This document shows positions 585-12,276 of a stretch of DNA of 64,000 nt, one piece after another (positions within the stretch are counted from its first letter, which is position 1; every line of letters starts with the position of its first letter). The DNA comes from Verrucomicrobiota bacterium (GTDB lineage: Bacteria > Verrucomicrobiota > Verrucomicrobiia > Limisphaerales > AAA164-E04). The stretch lies in the NCBI GenBank assembly GCA_047947115.1, contig CP170459.1:2848001-2912000 (forward strand), given 5' to 3'. The notes under the pieces are model-generated. The model had not been told where the DNA came from, searched no databases, and saw only the letters and a program-made list of their open reading frames with translations. A program made the position numbers and the translations under genes.

Positions 585-637
585 CATCGAAGTGGATAGG
601 GTTTTCCGGCAAAGATCAACCTTTGGAAACAACAGGA

Positions 638-1789
638 ATGAGTGGAGTGGAAAGCAAATGTCAGGGTGTGCGGCAGGCCACCTACTTGTTGATCTTGTGT
701 GTGGCGTTTCTGCTCACCTTTGGTTCTGTGGTGATCTATAGTGCCAGCATGCATGAGGAGGGGTCGTCCCTGTTGGTCAGACATGTGATGTATGTCGGTC
801 TGGGGTTATGCGGCGCTTTGTTTCTCGCATGGAAGGATTACGCGTGGATTCAGAAAAACGCGCTTTGGTTTTTTACGGTGGCTGTGGTGTTGTTGGCATT
901 GATCTTTGTCGCGGGTGAGGTGCGGAACCATGCTCGTCGGTGGTTTGTCTTCAGGAACTCCATCAGTTTTCAACCCTCGGAGTTTGCCAAACTGGCATTG
1001 ATCGTTTTCCTTGCATGGTATGGCGAAAAATACAGCGAGCAAATGAAGAGCTGGAGCAAGGGTTTTATCTATCCTCTGTTGCCCATTGGTTTGCTGTTGG
1101 GTTTGATATTTGCCGAGCCTGACCGGGGAACCACGATTTTGCTGGGTGCTCTTACAGCCATGGTGCTTTTGTTGGCCGGTTCGCGTTGGACCGGTTTTGC
1201 AGCGTTGTTTACCGCGGGGATCAGTGGTTTGATTTACATTTTCAGTACCCAGAGTATGCCGCGACAACGCTTGATGGCATGGTTGTATCCGGAGAAGTTC
1301 AAGGAGGATCAGGCTTACCAAATTTGGCAGTCATTGCTTGCATTTGGTTCGGGAGGTCTGGAGGGAATGGGGCTTGGTAATGGCAGGATCAAGATCAAGT
1401 TTCTGCCGGAGCAACAGACGGATTTTATTTTCGCCGTTGTGGGTGAAGAGTTGGGCTTGTTTGTATCCATCGGATTGGTTTTGATGTTTGCTTTGCTGGT
1501 GCTTTGTGGTCTGTTTATTGCCTGGAATGCCAGAGATCGATTTGGCTTTCTCACCGCTTCCGGGATCACGTTCCTGATCGGGATGCAGGCACTGATCAAT
1601 GTGGCGGTGGTTACCAATACCCTTCCCAACAAAGGATTATCATTACCGTTTATCAGTTACGGAGGATCCAATCTCATGTTTATGATGGCCGGAGTCGGAA
1701 TTCTGGTGAGCATCGCTCATCATTCCGTCAAATCCATTGGTCAAATCGGCCCTTTACCCGTCGAGCCGGAAGAATTGCTGCGCGCATGA
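638..1789 (+). CDS. ftsW: SEDS family peptidoglycan polymerase FtsW
   Basis: About 10 TM helices; motifs ARRW, FQPSEFAKL, EPDRGT, LPEQQTDFIFAVVGEELG, LPFISYGGS. Directly upstream of murG. ATG 638 chosen over TTG 623. Confidence 0.93.
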   Translation: MSGVESKCQGVRQATYLLILCVAFLLTFGSVVIYSASMHEEGSSLLVRHVMYVGLGLCGALFLAWKDYAWIQKNALWFFTVAVVLLALIFVAGEVRNHARRWFVFRNSISFQPSEFAKLALIVFLAWYGEKYSEQMKSWSKGFIYPLLPIGLLLGLIFAEPDRGTTILLGALTAMVLLLAGSRWTGFAALFTAGISGLIYIFSTQSMPRQRLMAWLYPEKFKEDQAYQIWQSLLAFGSGGLEGMGLGNGRIKIKFLPEQQTDFIFAVVGEELGLFVSIGLVLMFALLVLCGLFIAWNARDRFGFLTASGITFLIGMQALINVAVVTNTLPNKGLSLPFISYGGSNLMFMMAGVGILVSIAHHSVKSIGQIGPLPVEPEELLRA

Positions 1790-3003
1790 ATGACTCTGAT
1801 GACACAACTCCTCGATCTTTCAAAGTAGCCCTTGCCTGCGGAGGCACAGGAGGACACCTCTTCCCCGGAGTGGCCATCGCCGATGTGTTGAAGCAAAACG
1901 GGCATGAAGTTTTATTGATTTTATCTGACAAGAAAGTGGATCAAGCCGCCTCCTCATCGATCCATCATCCCCATATCACTTTGCCCAGCGTGGCTTGGCA
2001 GAAAGGAAAGCGTCTGCGTTTTCTGACCAGTTTCCCCAAAGTCCTTCACCGGTGTCGCACGGTTTTCAAGGATCATTGCCCGGATGCCGTACTTGCGATG
2101 GGTGGTTTTACCAGTCTTGCCCCGGTATTGACCGCTCGTCGTTGGAAAAAACCTGTGTTCCTGCATGAAAGTAACGCTTTTCCCGGTCGAGCCATTCGGT
2201 TGCTGGCCCGGTGGGCTGACACTGGGTTTGTGGGATTCGAAAAGACCATCAGCAGGATTCCGGGTGTCCCATGTCATGTTACAGGAACTCCAGTTCGTAA
2301 ATCCTTGCGTCAATTGGACAGGGAAGCTTGTGTTCGTGCTCTGGGGTTAAAAGTCGATCGTCCGGTGTTGTTGGTTACCGGAGGCAGTCAGGGAGCTGTT
2401 GCCATCAATCGCTTGATCTTATCCAATCTCGACAGGATTAAGTCAACGTTTCCCACTCTTCAGATCATGCACTTGTGTGGTTTGCATGAAGACCTGCCGG
2501 GTGTGTGCCGACAATATGCTAACCATGGAATCGACGCACAAGTCCACGCATTTTTCGATCGGATGGATCTCGCCCTTGGAGCTGCGACAGCCGCCATCGG
2601 AAGATCCGGCGCTTCGTTCATGGCTGAACTCGTTGCGGTCGGTCTGCCCTCTATGTTGATTCCATTTCCTCATGCGGCTGATAATCATCAGTTGGAAAAC
2701 GCGTTGAGCCTGAGTGAACTGGGCGCTGCCATTCATTTTGATGAGCAAACCGCTGACGCAGGCATTTTCATCAAGAAATTGGAAATTCTTCTGAAAGATG
2801 ATGCCCAACGATCCAGGATGCGGGCGGTCATGTCGGGGTTGGATCGTCCGGATTCGGCGCAGGTTATTGTTTCACACATGTCCACGCTTGTCGGCAGCCG
2901 CCGTTTCAATGAAAAAGGATCGGAAAAGTCGCGGCAATCAACCAACGCACAGGGCAGATCCGGTCAATCGCATTCAAGCCATCAGGTATCGACGGTGTCA
3001 TGA
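1786..3003 (+). CDS. murG: Undecaprenyl-PP-MurNAc-pentapeptide GlcNAc transferase MurG
   Basis: GGTGGHLFPG, MGGF, HESN, TGTPVR, GGSQGA, GRSGAS, NHQLENA. ATGA overlap with the ftsW stop. Confidence 0.95.
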   Translation: MNDSDDTTPRSFKVALACGGTGGHLFPGVAIADVLKQNGHEVLLILSDKKVDQAASSSIHHPHITLPSVAWQKGKRLRFLTSFPKVLHRCRTVFKDHCPDAVLAMGGFTSLAPVLTARRWKKPVFLHESNAFPGRAIRLLARWADTGFVGFEKTISRIPGVPCHVTGTPVRKSLRQLDREACVRALGLKVDRPVLLVTGGSQGAVAINRLILSNLDRIKSTFPTLQIMHLCGLHEDLPGVCRQYANHGIDAQVHAFFDRMDLALGAATAAIGRSGASFMAELVAVGLPSMLIPFPHAADNHQLENALSLSELGAAIHFDEQTADAGIFIKKLEILLKDDAQRSRMRAVMSGLDRPDSAQVIVSHMSTLVGSRRFNEKGSEKSRQSTNAQGRSGQSHSSHQVSTVS

Positions 3004-5363
3004 TCACAGAAAATCCATTTGCATTGAACGACTGGTTGAAGGAGCACCCGGGGGCGGGACTCTATTTTGTTGGAATTGGTGGTTGTGGTATGAGTGGTCT
3101 GGCTCATTTGGCGGTGGATGCCGGATTTCGTGTGGCCGGTTCCGACTTGAGTCACAAGGAATATCTGGAATCACTCAAAGGTCGGGGAGTGGCCATTGAA
3201 TTGGGACACTCTGTCGATCATCTGGAAGGATTCAAACCTGATTTGCTGGTTGTGTCGTCGGCCATTCCAGAAAGCAATCCCCAGTTCGAAGCGGCCAGAC
3301 AGTGGAATGTTCCCATGGTGCATCGGGCTGCATTGTTGGGTGCCTTGAGCCGTACCAAACGTTCGCTTTGTGTCGCGGGCATGCACGGGAAGACCACCAC
3401 ATCGGGCTTGCTTGCTTATGCGCTGCAGAATTTGAATGCTCCCATGTCGCACGCCATCGGAGGTCGGGTGCCTCAACTGGTGCGGCATGGAAATCATATC
3501 GCCCCGGTGCCCCTATCCGCACAGTCCGAGGGGATACCTCCTTACATGGTGGTGGAAACGGATGAAAGCGACGGGAGTCTCCTGGAGTTTGAGCCCGATC
3601 ATGCGATTTGCCTGAACATCGATCGTGAACACATGGACTATTACCGGTCCATCGATGACATTGTTCAGGTATTTGAACGGTTTCGGGATCGGGTTCGCGG
3701 CAAGACGCTGTATTGTGTGGACGACGCACGTCTCCGGGAGGTGTTTATGGGGCACGAGCAGGCGGTCTCCTTCGGCTTTTCACCTTTGGCTGTCTATCAG
3801 ATTGAAAACCATCAACCGGCCTCACACTTGAATCCCTACCACCGATTCAGTCTGCGCCATGGACGCCGTTCTCACGATGATTTTGAAATCAGCATCCACG
3901 GTCGGGACAATGTTTCCAATGCGGCTGCCGTGTTGGTGATGTTGCTCGAACTGGGGTATGCGGTGGGTGATATCCGATATGCCATTCGTGATTTTCGGGG
4001 AGTTGATCGTCGGCAGCAGGTGTTGTTTCAGGACACCGATCACACCGTGATTGATGATTACGGGCATCACCCTACGGAAATTGCCAGCACCTTGAGTTCC
4101 CTCCGATCCCGTGCTGAAGGTCGGTTGCTGGTTGCTTTTGAGCCGCATCGTTACTCGCGTACGGCGAGTTTGATGGATGAATTTGGGAAATGTTTCAAGC
4201 AGGCCGATCGGCTTTGGTTGTTGGATATTTATGCGGCTCACGAGAACCCATTGCCCGGAGTGTCCAGCGAATCTTTGGCTCATCAACTGGCAAAGCAAGG
4301 TGTGCCGGTCGTTCATCATTCGGATGCATCCACTCTGCCGGCAGCCATTCGATCTGAATTGAATCCCGGAGATTGGGTGGTGTTTCTGGGGGCTGGCACC
4401 ATCACCAGGTCGGCTCAGGCTTTCGCCGACATATTGAAAGGAGAACATCATATGGATCTGAATAACCTGTCTCAGTCTCTCAGCCGTTGCTTGAGCCAGG
4501 TGAGCACCATTAAAACCAACGAACTTCTCGGGCCGAAAACGACTCTTAAAGTCGGTGGACCCGCCGATATGTTTGTTGTTCCCGGGCATTGCGACGATTT
4601 GGCGGCGACCTTGAAGTGGGCCAAAGCACATCACGTGCCGCTGACTCTGTTGGGTAGGGGATCCAATTTATTGATCAAGGATAAAGGCATCCGAGGGTTG
4701 GTGGTTTCTTTGTCTCATGAGACGTTTTCCGAGATCAGTGTTGAGGGAGATCGACTCGTTTGCGGCGCGGGAACCCGTCTCAAGCAGTTGACCGAGGTTG
4801 CCCGCAAGAATGGGCTGGCCGGATTGGAGTTTTTGGAGGGGATTCCCGGTTGTGTGGGAGGGGCTTTACGGATGAACGCCGGCGCGATGGGGCGCGAGAC
4901 TTTTGGTGTGGTGGAGCAAATGACCACCATGGATCGCGACGGAAATCTCCATGTCTGGAAGGCATCTGAAGTTGCCACGCATTACCGACGGTGTCCATTG
5001 CTGACAAAACACATCGCTCTTTCCGCTGTTTTCAAAGGAACCCCATCGGAACCTGAAACGGTGAAGCGTACCATGGATGATTACTGCCAGCGTCGGAAAG
5101 GTTCCCAACCGATCGCCTCCAGCGCGGGATGCATGTTTAAGAATCCGGAGAACATTCCTGCGGGGAAATTGATTGATGAACTGGGATTGAAAGGAACGCG
5201 TATCGGAGATGCCATGATTTCCGAGGTGCACGGTAACTTTATTGTCAACTTGGGGGATGCCCGGTCCAGTGATGTGATTACTCTGATCGAGCTGGTCAAG
5301 GATCGGGCTAAATCAAATCGGGGCATCGATTTGGAAGTGGAAGTTCAGGTGGTGGGAGAATGA
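3000..5363 (+). CDS. murC/murB: MurC-MurB fusion (UDP-MurNAc-Ala ligase + UDP-N-acetylenolpyruvylglucosamine reductase)
   Basis: N-half: GIGGCGMSGLA, GMHGKTTT, ETDESDGS, DDYGHHPTEI. C-half: KVGGPA, LGRGSNLL, GIPGCVGGALRMNAGA, SAGCMFKNP, HGNFIVN. One continuous ORF. Confidence 0.95.
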   Translation: MITENPFALNDWLKEHPGAGLYFVGIGGCGMSGLAHLAVDAGFRVAGSDLSHKEYLESLKGRGVAIELGHSVDHLEGFKPDLLVVSSAIPESNPQFEAARQWNVPMVHRAALLGALSRTKRSLCVAGMHGKTTTSGLLAYALQNLNAPMSHAIGGRVPQLVRHGNHIAPVPLSAQSEGIPPYMVVETDESDGSLLEFEPDHAICLNIDREHMDYYRSIDDIVQVFERFRDRVRGKTLYCVDDARLREVFMGHEQAVSFGFSPLAVYQIENHQPASHLNPYHRFSLRHGRRSHDDFEISIHGRDNVSNAAAVLVMLLELGYAVGDIRYAIRDFRGVDRRQQVLFQDTDHTVIDDYGHHPTEIASTLSSLRSRAEGRLLVAFEPHRYSRTASLMDEFGKCFKQADRLWLLDIYAAHENPLPGVSSESLAHQLAKQGVPVVHHSDASTLPAAIRSELNPGDWVVFLGAGTITRSAQAFADILKGEHHMDLNNLSQSLSRCLSQVSTIKTNELLGPKTTLKVGGPADMFVVPGHCDDLAATLKWAKAHHVPLTLLGRGSNLLIKDKGIRGLVVSLSHETFSEISVEGDRLVCGAGTRLKQLTEVARKNGLAGLEFLEGIPGCVGGALRMNAGAMGRETFGVVEQMTTMDRDGNLHVWKASEVATHYRRCPLLTKHIALSAVFKGTPSEPETVKRTMDDYCQRRKGSQPIASSAGCMFKNPENIPAGKLIDELGLKGTRIGDAMISEVHGNFIVNLGDARSSDVITLIELVKDRAKSNRGIDLEVEVQVVGE

Positions 5364-6289
5364 GTCATAACCTCAATATTGCAGTCTTGATGGGCGGACC
5401 TTCGGCGGAACGCGAGGTCTCGCTGAAATCCGGTGCCGCCGTTGCCAAAGCGCTTGAAAGTTGTGGGCACCGGGTGACGAGGGTGGACCCGCAGGATGGC
5501 GTGCTACAGCTGCCGCCGGGAATGGATGTGGTCTTTCTGGCTTTGCACGGGACCTATGGTGAGGATGGTTCCGTCCAGCAGGAACTCGAAGCCATCGGTA
5601 TGCCTTACACTGGCAGCAGGCCGACCGCCAGCCGGCTTGCTTTTGACAAATTGGCTTCGAAACGTGTGTTTTGGGAACAAGGTCTGGCCACACCGAGGTT
5701 CTGCTCGGTGTCCCAGTCGGATGCCACCATTCCGTCGGATCTGGGAATGCCGTTGGTGGTGAAACCTGTCAGGCAAGGGTCCAGCGTTGGTTTGAGTTTT
5801 ATTCGCGAAACCGGACAATGGGTGAGTGCCCTTGAGGAGGTTTTGAAATTTGGTGGGGAAGCATTGGTGGAAGAATTCATTACAGGCCGCGAACTGACCG
5901 TTGGCATACTTGGGGAGGAAGCTTGTCCCATAGTGGAAATTCGTCCCAATGACGAGGCAGCCTATGATTATGAACACAAATACACCGTGGGGGCGACGCG
6001 CTACTTCTGCCCTGCTGATTTGGATGAAGAAGTGACGCGTCAATGTCAGTTGCTGGCTTTGAACGCTTTCAAGGCTCTGGGCTGTGAGGGGTATGGGCGT
6101 GTGGACATCATGCTGGATGGGGATCAGGCCTATTTGTTGGAAGTGAACACACTGCCCGGCATGACCGAAACCAGCTTGTTGCCCATGTCGGCGGGCGCGA
6201 GGGATATGGGGTTTGCCGAATTATGTGAGTGGATGATTCAGGACGCTCTGGATCGCCACGCAAAAAACAACAAAGGGAACCCTGCTTGA
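5360..6289 (+). CDS. ddl: D-alanine-D-alanine ligase
   Basis: GGPSAEREVSLKSG, LHGTYGEDG, KPVRQGSSVG, YDYEHKY, LEVNTLPGMT. Confidence 0.96.
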   Translation: MSHNLNIAVLMGGPSAEREVSLKSGAAVAKALESCGHRVTRVDPQDGVLQLPPGMDVVFLALHGTYGEDGSVQQELEAIGMPYTGSRPTASRLAFDKLASKRVFWEQGLATPRFCSVSQSDATIPSDLGMPLVVKPVRQGSSVGLSFIRETGQWVSALEEVLKFGGEALVEEFITGRELTVGILGEEACPIVEIRPNDEAAYDYEHKYTVGATRYFCPADLDEEVTRQCQLLALNAFKALGCEGYGRVDIMLDGDQAYLLEVNTLPGMTETSLLPMSAGARDMGFAELCEWMIQDALDRHAKNNKGNPA

Positions 6290-6293
6290 TAGA

Positions 6294-7277
6294 TTGAATC
6301 GAACCATGTTTTTCTTTTCCCAAAAATCACCTTTCAGCGCCGAGTCCACTTCGGAGGACATCGGGCTGGGACGTCAGCGTCGCGAGAAAAGAAAAAGGCG
6401 GGTGCGGCGAGTGCTGCGTGTGGGAAGTTGGCTGAGCGCCGTCCTGTTTGCCGCCTGGACATTGCACAGCGGGATCCACATTTTTCTTCAGAAGTATGTT
6501 TATACGAATGATACCCTCTCCTTGAAACGATTCACAGTCCGCTCCCAAGGTGTCATTCCACAGCGATTACTGGTGCAATGGACGGGGTTGAAGCCTGGTG
6601 ACAACCTGCTGGGGTTTGAACTGGCCGAAATCAAGCGCAACCTGGAACTGTCTCCGTTCATCGCCGAAGCATCGGTGGAACGTGTCTTTCCCGAAACACT
6701 GAGCATTCATGTGCGTGAACGCAAACCCAAAGCCCGCATACAATTGTTGCAGTTGGACGGGACCCCGAATGGGTCCATCAGGCTGGTTCCATTGATGCTG
6801 GATGAAAAGGGGGTGGTCATGTCACGGCCCACTCAGGGTGAAATACCTATTTCCATGCGATTGAAATGGGATCAACTTCCGGAAATCACGGGTGTCAATG
6901 GCATTCCCATTCACATAGGGCGCGCGGTGGACGATCCTCGCTTGAAAGCCGCCATTCATTGGGTGATGACATTTCAGGAGTCGCTGGTGCACTCTATGGT
7001 GACCGTCACCGAAGTCAACGTATCCGAGCCTGATGTGATCCAAGTGAAAACAGAGGATGGCCAAAAGGTTTTATTTGGTTTTGACGATACCTTGGCTCAA
7101 CTGGCCAAGTGGATGCAGGTGATTGATTTCGGTCGTGAAATCGGTCGCCGACTGTCCTTTTTGAATTTAACCATTCCAAACAACATGCCGTTCGAATGGA
7201 TGCCTGAAGAAGCGCTTCAGGCGGACGAACGGAGAAACAGAACCCAATTGCCTACGTTGAATCATGTGGATGTTTAA
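6294..7277 (+). CDS. ftsQ: Cell division protein FtsQ/DivIB
   Basis: Basic N-tail, single TM, POTRA-like segment ending ASVERVFPETLSIHVRERKP. Lies between ddl and ftsA. Start uncertain. Confidence 0.85.
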   Translation: MNRTMFFFSQKSPFSAESTSEDIGLGRQRREKRKRRVRRVLRVGSWLSAVLFAAWTLHSGIHIFLQKYVYTNDTLSLKRFTVRSQGVIPQRLLVQWTGLKPGDNLLGFELAEIKRNLELSPFIAEASVERVFPETLSIHVRERKPKARIQLLQLDGTPNGSIRLVPLMLDEKGVVMSRPTQGEIPISMRLKWDQLPEITGVNGIPIHIGRAVDDPRLKAAIHWVMTFQESLVHSMVTVTEVNVSEPDVIQVKTEDGQKVLFGFDDTLAQLAKWMQVIDFGREIGRRLSFLNLTIPNNMPFEWMPEEALQADERRNRTQLPTLNHVDV

Positions 7278-8493
7278 GCAGGATTCCTTTGTGACCGCAC
7301 TTGAAATTGGCACTTCGAAAGTCGTTGCCATCATAGCCGAAGTCAATGAGTCGGAAGCCATCAATATTGTCGGTTTTGGAGAGGCCAAATCGCATGGTGT
7401 GCTCAAAGGCGAAATCATCGATTCCAAAGTGGCTTACGAGGATATTCGAAAGGCCATCCGGGAAGCCGAAGACAGAGCTGACCGAGAGGTGCATCAAGTG
7501 TATCTGGGAGTGACCGGACAACATATCACTTCCAACAACTACACGGGCTCCCACGCCATTGCCTCAAGCGACCGTTTTATTTCCGAAGAAGACGTGGATG
7601 ATGTCATGAGCAATGCCCGACGATTCAACCTGAATCATGGGCAGCACATGATTCATGTCATCCGCCAGCAGTTTAAGGTTGATGGTCGGACGGTACATCA
7701 ATCTCCCATCGGTATGGCCGGATCCGATCTGGCTGTCGTGCTGCATGCAGTTCAGGGGTACAAAGAGCCATTGCAGCGGCCGGTTCAGTTATTGCGTAAA
7801 ATGAAATTGGAAGCCGAGAATCTAGTTTTCAATGGATTGGCTTCCGCACTCTCGGTGTTAAGTCCTGCCCAGAAAGCGGAGGGAGCCTTGGTCATCGATC
7901 TTGGGGCAGGGACCACCGAGTATGCCGCTTGTTCCAAGGGAGTGGTCTGTCATTCAGGTGTGCTGGCCGTGGGGGGGGATCATGTGACGGAAGATTTGTC
8001 GATCGGTTTGGAATGTCCCTTTACTCGCGCCGAAGATTTGAAGATCAAATTTGGATCCGCTGTGGTGTCCGAGTCGGCTCGTGGCCAGGTGAGAGAATTG
8101 GTGAACGAGGTTGGATTGACGGACCGACGTGTCAATGTGGAAAGTTTGAGGCGGATCATGTCTGAACGGTTGAAGGAAATATTCGCAATCATCGCTGCCG
8201 AGCTGGATCGCTGTGACATGACGGACATGGTCCACAGCGTGGTATTGTGTGGCGGTGGTTCATCCACGCCCGAGATTTGCACACTGGCTTCCAAGGTGCT
8301 CGAGTTGCCCGTTCAAATAGGTGCGGGAGTCAATCTGCACGGACCGAGTTCCATCATCGAACGACCTGAATATGCAACCGCGCTTGGTTTACTGAAATTT
8401 GGATCCTTTGACCTGGCGCGCCAGCGCGAATCGGCCGCCTCGCGTATACCGCTCAAGGATCGCATCAAGAGCCTGCTTCGTATCGAATCTTAA
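7264..8493 (+). CDS. ftsA: Cell division protein FtsA
   Basis: Actin-like motifs LEIGTSKV, IDLGAGTT, VGGDHVT, LCGGGS, YATALGL. Amphipathic C-tail LKDRIKSLLR. Start may be ATG 7270. Confidence 0.93.
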   Translation: MWMFKQDSFVTALEIGTSKVVAIIAEVNESEAINIVGFGEAKSHGVLKGEIIDSKVAYEDIRKAIREAEDRADREVHQVYLGVTGQHITSNNYTGSHAIASSDRFISEEDVDDVMSNARRFNLNHGQHMIHVIRQQFKVDGRTVHQSPIGMAGSDLAVVLHAVQGYKEPLQRPVQLLRKMKLEAENLVFNGLASALSVLSPAQKAEGALVIDLGAGTTEYAACSKGVVCHSGVLAVGGDHVTEDLSIGLECPFTRAEDLKIKFGSAVVSESARGQVRELVNEVGLTDRRVNVESLRRIMSERLKEIFAIIAAELDRCDMTDMVHSVVLCGGGSSTPEICTLASKVLELPVQIGAGVNLHGPSSIIERPEYATALGLLKFGSFDLARQRESAASRIPLKDRIKSLLRIES

Positions 8494-8509: not shown

Positions 8510-9802
8510 ATGACTGTCAGCAAAAGTAAGGAAAGTGGCGCTGCACCGGTTTACAAAGACCGGCTGATCGGTGTCGGGCAGATGGGCGGTAAGGTGGCAT
8601 CCATGATCCTACAGCGTGGCGAACTGCCCGCCCGGGGCGTGGCACTCGACATCGATGCATCCCATCTGGAAGACCTCCAACAAGAAGGCCTCATGAAAAT
8701 TCTCTGCGACGGAGAAGGGAACATGCGTGAGGTTGGCGATCAGGAGGGGGATACATTTTCAGGAACATCCGAAAATCATTACTGTCCGGAAGCACTGGGA
8801 GGCCATTCCGACTGGGCCATGTTGGTGGCGGGGTTGGGGGATGATTGTTCAGATCCCATCCTTCGTCAGACCGTTTCGACCGTCAAAAAACAAGGAAGCC
8901 TCGCTCTTGTCATATGTTCGCTTCCTTTCGACATGGAAGGAGAAGAGAAAAAGGAGTTGGCTGAAAAAACGTTGGAAGACCTCCTTCAGATGGCGGATGC
9001 GGTGATTGCACTTCCCAACCAGAGTTATCTGAAAAATCGTAATCAACCTGTTAAAATGAAGGAGGCTTTTGAAATGAGCCGCCTCGCATTGAGCAAGGCC
9101 ACTGAGGGTGTGTGGGAAATGCTGCATGCCGATGGGTTGACAAAGATCAAGCTTTCTCACCTCCGGGAACTGTTCCGCGGTCAACATGTGGAAGGGCTGT
9201 TCGCATCCTCCGAAGCGGAAGGGGAGGACCGTGCCAAAGAGGCGGTGGAAGATCTGCTCCGACACCCACAAATGGAAGCTGGACAGGCATTGCGGCTGGC
9301 GGATGCATGTTTGCTGCAGGTTACCGGGGATGAAAGCCTGACCTTCAAGGAAGTGGACCGCATCAAACGCCACGTTCGCCGGTTTTTACCCGAGGACAAA
9401 TCTCTGGTGGTTGGGACGTCCGTGGGTGGCACCCGGGCGGGTGTTCTTTCCATTCGCTTAATCAGTGCTCATGTTTCCCATACCTTGCCCCCACTGAAGC
9501 AGTCGGACCAAAAGGCGGAACAAGTGAAAATCGCTCCGGATTATTTTCCCGTCCCCATTGAGAAAGTGTCACAGCCCGCCCCATTGGATCTTCAAGAACC
9601 GGCTCAACAAGAAGAAGTGGTCATTCAGAACAGTGGCAAAGAGCTGCCTATTGACACCCCTCATCCGATGGCGCCTCCACCGTCTGCCAAGCGCCGCAAG
9701 GGGGTTGGTAAAAAGTACGGGTCTTCTCAAAAAAGAGTGGGTAAATTGAGCACGTCGGGATGCCCTATCGCTCTGTTCCAGTCCAGTAAAACATCAGCAT
9801 AA
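8510..9802 (+). CDS. ftsZ: FtsZ-like protein with degenerate GTPase motifs, truncated by ISL3 (native sequence to 9718, then 27 IS-derived residues)
   Basis: Follows ftsA. FtsZ-fold landmarks IGVG, LDID, VAGLG, PFDMEG, DAVIALPN, EGEDRAKEAV, LQVTG, VVGTS. Signature GGGTG(S/T)G is replaced by GDDCSDP. Confidence 0.88.
   Translation: MTVSKSKESGAAPVYKDRLIGVGQMGGKVASMILQRGELPARGVALDIDASHLEDLQQEGLMKILCDGEGNMREVGDQEGDTFSGTSENHYCPEALGGHSDWAMLVAGLGDDCSDPILRQTVSTVKKQGSLALVICSLPFDMEGEEKKELAEKTLEDLLQMADAVIALPNQSYLKNRNQPVKMKEAFEMSRLALSKATEGVWEMLHADGLTKIKLSHLRELFRGQHVEGLFASSEAEGEDRAKEAVEDLLRHPQMEAGQALRLADACLLQVTGDESLTFKEVDRIKRHVRRFLPEDKSLVVGTSVGGTRAGVLSIRLISAHVSHTLPPLKQSDQKAEQVKIAPDYFPVPIEKVSQPAPLDLQEPAQQEEVVIQNSGKELPIDTPHPMAPPPSAKRRKGVGKKYGSSQKRVGKLSTSGCPIALFQSSKTSA
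9711..9718. repeat. Left target-site duplication AAAAGTAC
   Basis: Identical copy at 11251-11258. Confidence 0.93.
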
Positions 9803-11250
9803 CTCCCCCGCTGACGCGGAGTCGGCCTTCGGCACTTATATGATGTTTTCCTGGACTTCCACGACGCGAGAGGGCCTACGGGTGGTGTGGTTTTTCTCCA
9901 AGAAAAACCCAGAGGATTTTTATTCGAAAAGCATCGGCAATCTCCTCAACATGGCGTCGCCAAAACAAACCTCGTCAAAGAGTGCCGATGCTGTTGAAAA
10001 CCTTGCTCAATCGTTGCCATAAATTCAAATCCTTTGTCTATCGCCAAGCATGCTTCCAGGAAGTTGAAGGAGTCGAAGCTATTGTCGTAAGCGTTGAACC
10101 ACGGCAAAACAGCCGCCCAGTATGTTCAAAGTGCAATCGTAGTGCTTCCACCTATGACCATCGTCCTGGAAAACGAAAGTTTCGATTCATCCCCTTATGG
10201 GGGTGGCCGGTGTTTCTTGAATACCGGATGCGAAGAGTTAACTGCCCCAATGACGGTGTTGTCATCGAATCGGTTCCTTGGGCCAAAGGAAAAAGCCGGA
10301 TAACCTGTGTCATGGAACACTTCCTTGCACAGTGGGCTCGGAAACTTTCATGGAAAGAAGTTGCCCAGACCTTTGAAGTCAGTTGGCAATCGGTGTATCG
10401 GTCCGTTGCTTCCATTGTTGAATACGGCTTGAAGCACAGGAGTTTGGACGATATTAATGCCATCGGAGTTGATGAGGTGCATTTTGGAAAGGGGCAAAAG
10501 TATCTGACGGTGGTTTACCAGATAGATCAAGGCACGCGCCGATTGTTAAGCGTCACCAAGGAGAGAACCGAGCAATCCCTTCGGGATTTTTTTAAGATCC
10601 TCACTCAAAAGCAACTTGAGTCCATTCAATTTGTTTGTTCGGACATGTGGAAACCTTATCTCAATGTGATTAAGGAAAAACTCGAACACGCCCTCCACGT
10701 GTTGGATCGCTTCCATATCGTAGCCAATCTGAACAAAGCAATCAATGAAGTCAGGGCGGTCGAAGCGCGTAAGATGCGTCAGGACGGATACCAGGAAGTG
10801 CTTAAACACACCAAATACTGCTTTCTCAAACGTCGTGAGAACCTCACGCCCAATCAAAAGATTAAGCTGGAGGAAGTCCTCCAGTATGATCTGAAAAGTG
10901 TTCGGGCATTTTTGCTCAAAGAAGCATTTGAGTTCTTTTGGAATTACACTAGCCCATATTGGGCTGAGTGGTATTTGAACAAGTGGTGCACCAGAGCTAT
11001 GCGCTCACGTCTGGAACCCATCAAGAAATTTGCCAGCAGCCTACGAAAACATCAGCCGCTGATCCTGAATTGGTTCAGGGCCAAAAAGACTATTTCGTCG
11101 GGAGTTGTTGAGGGTTTGAACCGCAAAATAAATCTGACTACCAGAAAAGCCTACGGCTATCGTAGCTTTGAAGTGCTTAAAATAGCCCTTTTTCACACAA
11201 TGGGTGAACTACCCGAACCTAAATTTACCCACAGATTCTGAAGAAGAGGC
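9719..11250 (+). mobile_element. ISL3-family insertion sequence (1532 bp)
   Basis: 29-bp imperfect terminal IRs (9719-9747 and 11222-11250, 21/29 identical), 8-bp direct repeat AAAAGTAC on both sides, one transposase. Confidence 0.95.
9982..11241 (+). CDS. ISL3-family transposase
   Basis: Zn-ribbon CSKC...RRVNCPNDG; DDE core IGVDE, CSDMWKPY, LDRFHIV, SGVVEGLNRKI, AYGYRS. Confidence 0.95.
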   Translation: MPMLLKTLLNRCHKFKSFVYRQACFQEVEGVEAIVVSVEPRQNSRPVCSKCNRSASTYDHRPGKRKFRFIPLWGWPVFLEYRMRRVNCPNDGVVIESVPWAKGKSRITCVMEHFLAQWARKLSWKEVAQTFEVSWQSVYRSVASIVEYGLKHRSLDDINAIGVDEVHFGKGQKYLTVVYQIDQGTRRLLSVTKERTEQSLRDFFKILTQKQLESIQFVCSDMWKPYLNVIKEKLEHALHVLDRFHIVANLNKAINEVRAVEARKMRQDGYQEVLKHTKYCFLKRRENLTPNQKIKLEEVLQYDLKSVRAFLLKEAFEFFWNYTSPYWAEWYLNKWCTRAMRSRLEPIKKFASSLRKHQPLILNWFRAKKTISSGVVEGLNRKINLTTRKAYGYRSFEVLKIALFHTMGELPEPKFTHRF

Positions 11251-11258
11251 AAAAGTAC
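11251..11258. repeat. Right target-site duplication AAAAGTAC
   Basis: Identical copy at 9711-9718. Confidence 0.93.
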
Positions 11259-11384
11259 TTTCAAACGTTTCTTAACCTGAGCGGGCAAAAGAAGGGACGT
11301 TTTGCGAAATGTGAACCGACCTACTACAACTCCATCAATCTGGACGAACCTACGTTCCAGCGGAAAAAAGTATTGTTTAATTGA
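11259..11384 (+). pseudogene. ftsZ: Severed 3' end of ftsZ (41 codons + TGA)
   Basis: In frame with 8510-9718 once the IS and one TSD are removed: FQTFLNLSGQKKGRFAKCEPTYYNSINLDEPTFQRKKVLFN*. LDEPTFQR matches the FtsZ C-terminal LDIPxFLR core. Confidence 0.88.
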
Positions 11385-11514: not shown

Positions 11515-12276
11515 ATGAAAGAGAGCGTTTTTCCGTTTTGGAGGGGTGCGTTTTCGCATCGTCTTGTTTCCACACGAGCGTTTACCTTGATAGAATTGCT
11601 GGTGGTGATTGCCATCATCGCCATTCTGGCGAGCATGTTATTGCCGGCATTGAGCAAGGCGAAGGAAAAGGCTCATCGGACCAAGTGTCTCAGTAACCTC
11701 AAGCAGATGTTGTTGGCCACGCACATGTATGTGACGGACAACGAAGATTATCTTCCTTACAGTTCCTGGAGTTCCGGTACCTACGATGTTGCCAATTGGC
11801 TCTACACGCGGAAGCGAGGTCAGAATCCGGAACACGATGTTACCCTCGGTCAGCTTTGGAATTATGTTCCCACCGGCCAGATATATTGGTGTCCACTGGA
11901 TCGCACGAACACGGCGCTTTTCAAACAACGCGAAATGCAGGTATCCAGTTATGTGATGAATGGGGCTGTGACGGCTTACGGCACATCTCCCAACGGGGTG
12001 CAGTGGGGAAGTTTCAAGATGGACCAGTTTAATGCGGGGAATTTGCTTTATTGGGAAGCGGATGAGCGCCTGCCTTCCAATTATGACAATGTGGCCAGCC
12101 GTCCGAATGAAGGTGTCACAGAAAGGCACAACAGCGGCACTAATCTGGGTATGTTCGGAGGTCATGTGGAGTATTGGAAGTTTACCGACTATTATGAAGA
12201 AGCCGGTATTGGTGGATTTTCCGGCAAGCGCCCCGGTTTGTTCTGGTGCAATCCGTCATCAGTGAATGGCGATTGA
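11515..12276 (+). CDS. Prepilin-type N-terminal cleavage/methylation protein with H-X9-DG-like C-terminal motif (DUF1559-like)
   Basis: [37 protein letters not shown]-terminal [14 protein letters not shown]. Confidence 0.88.

Follow-up and report, generated by a model that had tools for sequence, protein, structure and literature searches.

The window, a 64,000-nucleotide stretch of a Limisphaerales genome (Verrucomicrobiota), contains the sole ftsZ of that genome, a vertically inherited gene that we take, with a probability of roughly 55%, to encode a likely nucleotide-free, non-treadmilling adaptor or static scaffold, the tail of which is predicted to attach to FtsA where the cell divides. 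In the textbook view, FtsZ works by GTP-driven treadmilling. Its descent, fold, position and tail identify the window gene as an FtsZ; no phosphate-binding or catalytic loop can be recognised in it and it does not pass the tests for GTPase motifs, and the "GTPase-dead" status proposed for its product in a sequence-only reading of this DNA is a prediction from the residues present. In the proposed mechanism, the conserved tail would bind FtsA. In the genus of the window genome (g1), the globular part would still use its conserved T5-H5-T6 and C-domain surfaces to self-associate or to bind a partner; in the sister genus (g2), it would do hardly more than carry the tail. Septal wall synthesis would owe its dynamics to FtsA (ATP) and to the FtsQ/FtsW/FtsI synthase with FtsK instead of FtsZ treadmilling. 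What is retained by selection is the tail, and in g1 these surfaces as well. A further related genus, used for comparison, is denoted g3.

The ftsZ gene, its neighbours and its altered loops

The following features are located in and around the gene:

623..1789, + strand: ftsW (domain and profile matches)
1504..3003, + strand: murG, true start probably near 1786 (domain match)
3000..5363, + strand: murC-murB fusion (domain match)
5360..6289, + strand: ddl (domain match)
6294..7277, + strand: ftsQ (POTRA_1, FtsQ_DivIB_C)
7264..8493, + strand: ftsA, with ATP-site motifs and a basic, amphipathic-looking end intact (TIGR01174, 303 bits, cut-off 176)
8510..9718, + strand: ftsZ-derived gene, codons 1-403, globular domains and linker (profile and structure matches; TIGR00065, 88 bits)
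8567..8593, + strand: T1 loop, IGVGQMGGK (G20>Q, G21>M, N24>K in K. pneumoniae numbering; alignment to 9isk)
8723..8788, + strand: position of the T3 loop (GLGAG), replaced and differing between species
8828..8857, + strand: position of the T4 tubulin signature, AGLGDDCSDP (alignment, genus comparison)
8924..9019, + strand: T5 loop, helix H5 and T6, with PFxxEG and PN kept and R142>K; near-invariant in the genus
9134..9163, + strand: position of the T7 loop, GLTKIKLSHL (N207>K, D209>K, D212>H; alignment)

The dcw cluster is complete through ftsA, with mraW, ftsI, three Mur ligases and mraY lying upstream of the window, and at each of the 94 loci where ftsA is complete, ftsZ comes after it and shares its strand. 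The phosphate-1, phosphate-2 and adenine motifs of FtsA are retained. The sequence-only reading had described the dcw cluster as otherwise intact, and ftsW, murG, murC-murB, ddl, ftsQ and ftsA are so; the altered motifs that it had read were located at GVGQMGGK (from 8570), AGLGDDCSDP (8828-8857) and GLTKIKLSHL (9134-9163), and its retained landmarks at PFDMEG (8924), DAVIALPN (8996), GEDRAKEA (9221), VTG (9320) and VVGT (9407). ZapA was found in none of five genomes and SepF in none of the five above the cut-off; their absence was rejected as a cause of the change in FtsZ, since g3 and Limisphaera are without both too. Two frames in the positions of mraZ (L171:7908-8462, 184 aa) and ftsL (L171:9569-9988, 139 aa) have no Pfam match at E 0.01, and one g2 locus (L040:6678-8881, G010) has murG followed by murB alone, as against the murC-murB fusion of the window.

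The closest solved structures to the window protein are FtsZs (K. pneumoniae FtsZ 9isk, E 7e-21), and in the alignment to 9isk the altered segments fall on T1, T4 and T7, and the kept ones on T5, T6 and the C-domain. The FtsZ C-domain is present (PF12327, 44 bits, cut-off 27), PF00091 (Tubulin) scores 31.5 bits, slightly below its cut-off of 33, and the TIGR00065 score of 88.3 is below the cut-off of 295.2, as it is in 103 of 111 genomes of the phylum. Tubulin_C (PF03953), the domain that would mark a tubulin or BtubA/B, had no match on the window protein and none in five genomes, yet the control matched nowhere either. Among the GTPase motifs, the tubulin signature GGGTG[ST]G is missing, G105-G111 being GDDCSDP here and the signature occurring in 0/7 sequences of the genus. 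T7 (NxDxxD) reads KIKLSH, with D209 and D212 in none of the seven. The T1 (GGGGxN) and T3 (GLGAG) loops both fail the motif test, GLGAG being absent from the window FtsZ in the alignment to 9isk, and R142 is K and N186 is R.

Compared with canonical FtsZ (TIGR00065; PF00091 and PF12327; K. pneumoniae 9isk/8h1o, E. coli 6ll6), the window protein shares the position after ftsQ-ftsA, the status of sole copy, a modelled two-domain fold, T5 PFxxEG, T6 PN, and a linker with a C-terminal core peptide. It differs in the replaced residues of T1, T3, T4 and T7 and in its score of 88 versus 295 bits. In the canonical protein, as described in the accessible part of PMC8456036, T1-T4 contact the phosphates, hydrolysis depends on T7 from the neighbouring subunit, and FtsA is bound through the tail; the same part states that tail deletion in E. 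coli FtsZ blocks division. Since both halves of the site, T1-T4 and T7, are replaced, GTP hydrolysis by the window-type FtsZ would very probably not occur, and triphosphate binding is probably lost as well. Residues P134, E138, N165, F182 and D45 are kept in all seven g1 sequences, so some guanine nucleotide may still be bound.

The loss is shared throughout the genus. None of the seven g1 sequences keeps G20, G21, N24, T44, G69, A72, G73, G107-G111, R142, N186, D209, F210 or D212. G22, D45, G105, P134, E138, N165 and F182 are kept in every one; of the ribose and base contacts, P134, E138, N165 and F182 are kept and N186 is R in 7/7. The replacements vary (G107 to D, E or V; T108 to C or F; G111 to P, E, D or Q), and the T3 loop differs in both sequence and length. 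A set of 59 near-canonical sequences has 48 positions conserved at 85% or above; g1 retains 23 of these and departs at 25, which cluster in T3, T4 and the next helix, and 128 of 322 positions are invariant within the genus. These patterns bear on a reading that we consider unlikely, in which the protein is rewired and live, still binding guanine nucleotide (GDP, or GTP in a non-standard manner) and possibly hydrolysing it slowly through lineage-specific basic residues. The seven universally kept residues, the invariant K147, R191 and H217 at or near the old site, and the survival elsewhere in the order of GGGxxxG in 62/75 families, with T7 complete in 26/75, suggesting that slow GTP-binding forms probably exist nearby, speak for it. 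The replacement of G107, T108 and G111, the variable T3, the uniform change of N186, and the near-complete disappearance of the kept residues in g2 speak against it.

Pairwise dN/dS (Nei-Gojobori) of ftsZ is 0.143, 0.101 and 0.127 in three close, unsaturated pairs and 0.062 in one near-saturated pair, whole-gene values being saturated in four of eight pairs; ftsA gives 0.023-0.042, so ftsZ (0.10-0.14 in the unsaturated pairs) is the less constrained of the two. The frame is intact in the six other g1 genomes with a match (of seven) and in both matched g2 genomes. The sequence-only reading had called for relatives to be compared for motif loss and dN/dS, and with the loss common to 7/7 and dN/dS of 0.06-0.14, g1 ftsZ is, as judged from these substitution patterns, under purifying selection and not in simple decay. 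Pseudogene decay, or an artefact of assembly or sequencing, is already largely refuted and is highly improbable: the gene is split by an insertion sequence here and base 8781 is unlike all eight public runs examined, but the frames are intact in relatives, dN/dS lies far below 1, ten 444-aa proteins occur among 15 listed cluster members, and perfect 8-bp duplications flank 11 copies of the insertion sequence.

Structure prediction, another check proposed in the sequence-only reading, agrees with retention of the FtsZ fold in the model. The AlphaFold2 model of the intact G001 orthologue (79% identical), the input alignment of which contains canonical-like sequences, has an FtsZ fold with pLDDT 72.8 and pTM 0.65, pLDDT being below 50 in residues 79-93, the linker and part of the tail, and every listed Foldseek match to this model is an FtsZ (TM by target 0.71-0.81).

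The six-frame and profile searches found no canonical copy elsewhere in the genome. The genome is a single contig of 6,080,780 bp (95.8% complete) in which PF00091 finds one locus, and near-canonical and order-wide FtsZ profiles match only two pieces of the window gene among 142,084 six-frame segments; a hidden canonical ftsZ was rejected, the next-best match (E 0.035) being an HlyD-family protein. In the family, 20 of 22 genomes match at one locus each, the two misses being 86% and 52% complete, and all 13 genomes at least 90% complete have ftsZ. In the order, 259 of 261 genomes match, a tally that includes the unpublished G213.

The ISL3 insertion and the severed tail

The end of the gene is interrupted by an insertion sequence (IS), with these features:

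9711..9718, + strand: 8-bp target-site duplication, left copy
9719..11250, + strand: ISL3-family IS, 1532 bp, with terminal inverted repeats
9982..11241, + strand: ISL3 transposase (NF033550, 304 bits, cut-off 180; PF01610)
11251..11258, + strand: 8-bp target-site duplication, right copy
11259..11384, + strand: severed ftsZ end, codons 404-444 and stop, with the conserved C-terminal core LDxPT[YF]

The IS enters after codon 403, so the assembled frame (8510-9802, stop at 9800-9802) continues into it and has 430 codons, the last 27 of which are IS sequence. Without the IS the frame has 444 codons, the last 41 of which the IS removes, and no in-frame ATG, GTG or TTG was read ahead of the severed tail. 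The sequence-only reading had credited the gene with an open frame of 444 codons including its tail core, without mention of the IS; this is right for the IS-free allele only. The conserved C-terminal peptide is thus present in that allele and in every matched relative, and is severed in the assembly. A gene of the prepilin-type N-methylation/DUF1559 kind (window 11515-12276) lies directly after the severed tail.

This IS is one of 11 copies in the genome, which are 99.9-100% identical and carry perfect 8-bp duplications at 11/11, and the ISL3 copies are a recent burst of one element. Elsewhere the element disrupts an IS630-type transposase, a beta-helix protein, a UDP-GlcNAc 2-epimerase and two frames that lack a Pfam match, and the genome holds 74 repeat intervals of at least 700 bp at an identity of at least 97%. 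A contig joining 9710 to 11251, that is, the IS-free allele, was present in all eight public runs examined (five DNA and three RNA, from eight studies, out of 24 runs listed), which derive from estuary, seawater, marsh and similar metagenomes; the RNA runs contain the gene as contigs, and contig presence does not demonstrate transcription. Among the 15 listed cluster members, ten have 444 aa, one has 430 aa (this contig) and four are fragments. The IS-free runs and the 444-aa members indicate that the insertion is recent and so far private to this assembly, its absence elsewhere being unproven because contigs drop rare variants; the IS allele would accordingly represent, under the proposed mechanism, a recent and private tail loss in this genome. 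Window base 8781 differs from 8/8 runs and base 8804 from 7/8, both differences being amino-acid changes, located within the eroded T3 region or immediately behind it.

A tail-less allele in a closed genome fits an essential tether poorly, if the strain was growing, and it is one of the observations behind a third reading, which is rather unlikely in our estimation. Here FtsZ would be an accessory relic in the course of being lost: the cell has ceased to need an FtsZ scaffold and divides by means of FtsA, FtsK or MreB, as has been suggested for Chlamydia, and the FtsZ tail merely tunes FtsA, so that its loss costs little. In keeping with this, genes for MreB, PBP2, FtsI, FtsK and a RodA-like protein are present, MreB is 97% identical between g1 and g2, and the globular part in g2 is only 18-25% identical within the genus and has no Pfam match. 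However, ftsZ is found in every family genome that is at least 90% complete (13/13) and in nearly all of the order, the IS allele is absent from the eight runs, and the g1 globular part is under purifying selection. In addition, ftsZ is reported as essential in Verrucomicrobium spinosum in the text seen of PMC12283558, though that protein is canonical. Taken as sequence evidence, the universal retention and the IS-free populations would count for an essential tether.

The sister genus, the conserved tail and FtsA

In g2, neither TIGR00065 (at E <=1) nor Pfam matches the gene that follows ftsA. It aligns to near-canonical FtsZ by hhalign profile at 97.8%, a value partly driven by the tail; loss of ftsZ in g2 was rejected, for the diverged gene sits after ftsA. 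Between g1 and g2 the identity is about 15% in the globular part versus 71% in the last 44 residues, and within g2 it is 18-25% versus 82% for the tail. Residues of the P134/E138/N165/F182 type are almost entirely lost. The g2 fold model is of low confidence (pLDDT 44.8), and its FtsZ matches (E 4e-11, TM about 0.3) weigh little, g1 rows having been contained in the alignment. To judge from these comparisons, g2 looks like a later stage of erosion, in which the tail alone is conserved. The C-terminal core motif occurs in 150 of 159 sequences, the nine misses including the IS allele and loci cut by contig ends.

The window-genus FtsZ is about 26% identical to the near-canonical FtsZs of its own order. 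In quick trees, the g1+g2 clade has a support of 100 (FtsA) and 99 (FtsZ) and is nested inside the FtsZs of the order (95), and g3 is sister to it when the FtsA tree is reduced (90), a placement that the larger tree does not show. Identities to four outgroup genomes, with 11 or 12 genomes per gene, were as follows for g1/g2/g3: RecA 76/76/75%, MreB 92/91/86%, FtsK 70/66/64%, FtsI 42/44/46%, FtsA 45/42/55%, FtsZ tail 40/36/58% and FtsZ globular part 27/14/44%. The identities of FtsA and the tail drop, and those of RecA, MreB, FtsK and FtsI drop little or not at all, which indicates that FtsA and the tail changed jointly on the stem and were conserved from then on; the compared genomes being kin, this co-shift is one event and not a statistical test. 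Residues R302 and E305 of FtsA, which we take to be those that bind the FtsZ tail, are invariant in 46 sequences.

Erosion of FtsZ in the order and comparison with known systems

In the survey of the order, every other family was represented by its first genome; 75 of 77 were used, G038 giving no match and G049 being truncated at a contig end. T7 was found in full in 26/75 families and GGGxxxG in 62/75, and a 17-residue phosphate-site score was at least 13 in 67/75 and 6 or less in only 3/75 (f10, f53 and f74), the score of g1 being 4-5 of 17. T7 loss is thus common and P-loop loss rare, and T7 erosion is, on these motif counts, widespread in both order and phylum and not special to the window gene. 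The FtsA tree needs at least three state changes for P-loop loss, and independent losses are suggested only, because an AU test did not reject the grouping of f74 with g1+g2 (p 0.1). The TIGR00065 cut-off was passed by 8/111 genomes of the phylum versus 13/14 controls. Limisphaera ngatamarikiensis has one FtsZ copy that was found (WP_165106333.1, annotated as hypothetical; identical to the G037 FtsZ, L027:1468-2775), with a T7 of GLIPVPLEHL without the catalytic residues, an altered T2 and the signature GGGAGSG. Limisphaera cells are cocci that divide by binary fission, according to the portion of PMC13608581 available. As a cultured organism with an FtsZ without T7 residues and with binary fission, L. 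ngatamarikiensis makes part of the question testable now.

The fast-evolving FtsZs of V. spinosum, M. infernorum and Prosthecobacter belong to the same phylum and show the same acceleration as the window FtsZ. In the sections of the sources seen, V. spinosum FtsZ has GGGTGSG (PMC1845146), verrucomicrobial FtsZs are among the most divergent (PMC9871819), and ftsZ is accelerated in M. infernorum and Prosthecobacter (PMC2474590); what these sections of the three papers describe is divergence or acceleration, not a gene under purifying selection that has lost its phosphate loops and conserved its tail. A Lentisphaera ftsZ homologue was called non-functional in a reviewer's comment in PMC2474590, as excerpted. 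It is likewise a degenerate ftsZ of the PVC group, compared here by description only; in contrast to its treatment as non-functional, the selection and tail conservation of the window FtsZ point to a kept function. None of the papers listed in the literature search describes such a loss of motifs for the FtsZ of Limisphaerales, and an earlier mention, for example in a supplement, is possible.

Chlamydiota and Planctomycetota divide without FtsZ, as stated in the parts seen of PMC5147048 and PMC12283558. The window clade would have in common with them a division that probably proceeds without FtsZ treadmilling, with MreB and FtsK present; unlike them, it keeps ftsZ, ftsA, the full mur pathway, ftsW, ftsI and ftsQ. 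The window clade bears on how these two phyla came to divide without FtsZ: it combines a full divisome with a single, conserved and apparently nucleotide-free FtsZ, and so tests in nature which of the functions of FtsZ cannot be dispensed with. The data point to the tail. A bolder version of the preferred reading, possible but with the odds against it, is that division in free-living, walled Limisphaerales uses an FtsZ to which no nucleotide binds at all, and that the order is a living series of FtsZ surrender in which FtsA becomes the organising filament. Equally tentatively, the steps would be loss of T7, loss of the P-loop, reduction of the globular part to a carrier for a 44-residue FtsA-binding tail, and cutting of the tail by an IS in a viable strain. 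If true, the series shows how PVC bacteria could give up FtsZ. Surveys based on HMMs will call such genomes ftsZ-less, as the g2 result with TIGR00065 illustrates.

Further low-scoring genomes were hand-picked and are not a random sample. In other families of the order, the P-loop is largely lost and the tail kept in L136:2022-3239 (G074, no Pfam match), L071:1456-2781 (G095) and L047:1462-2940 (G030). Short FtsZ-like frames of 264 and 296 aa occur at L155:1674-2465 (G354) and L135:290-1177 (G156), in which the N-domain and tail are apparently kept and the C-domain is missing, and four genomes of family f109 have frames of 250-264 aa together with a second, weak match of about 370 aa.
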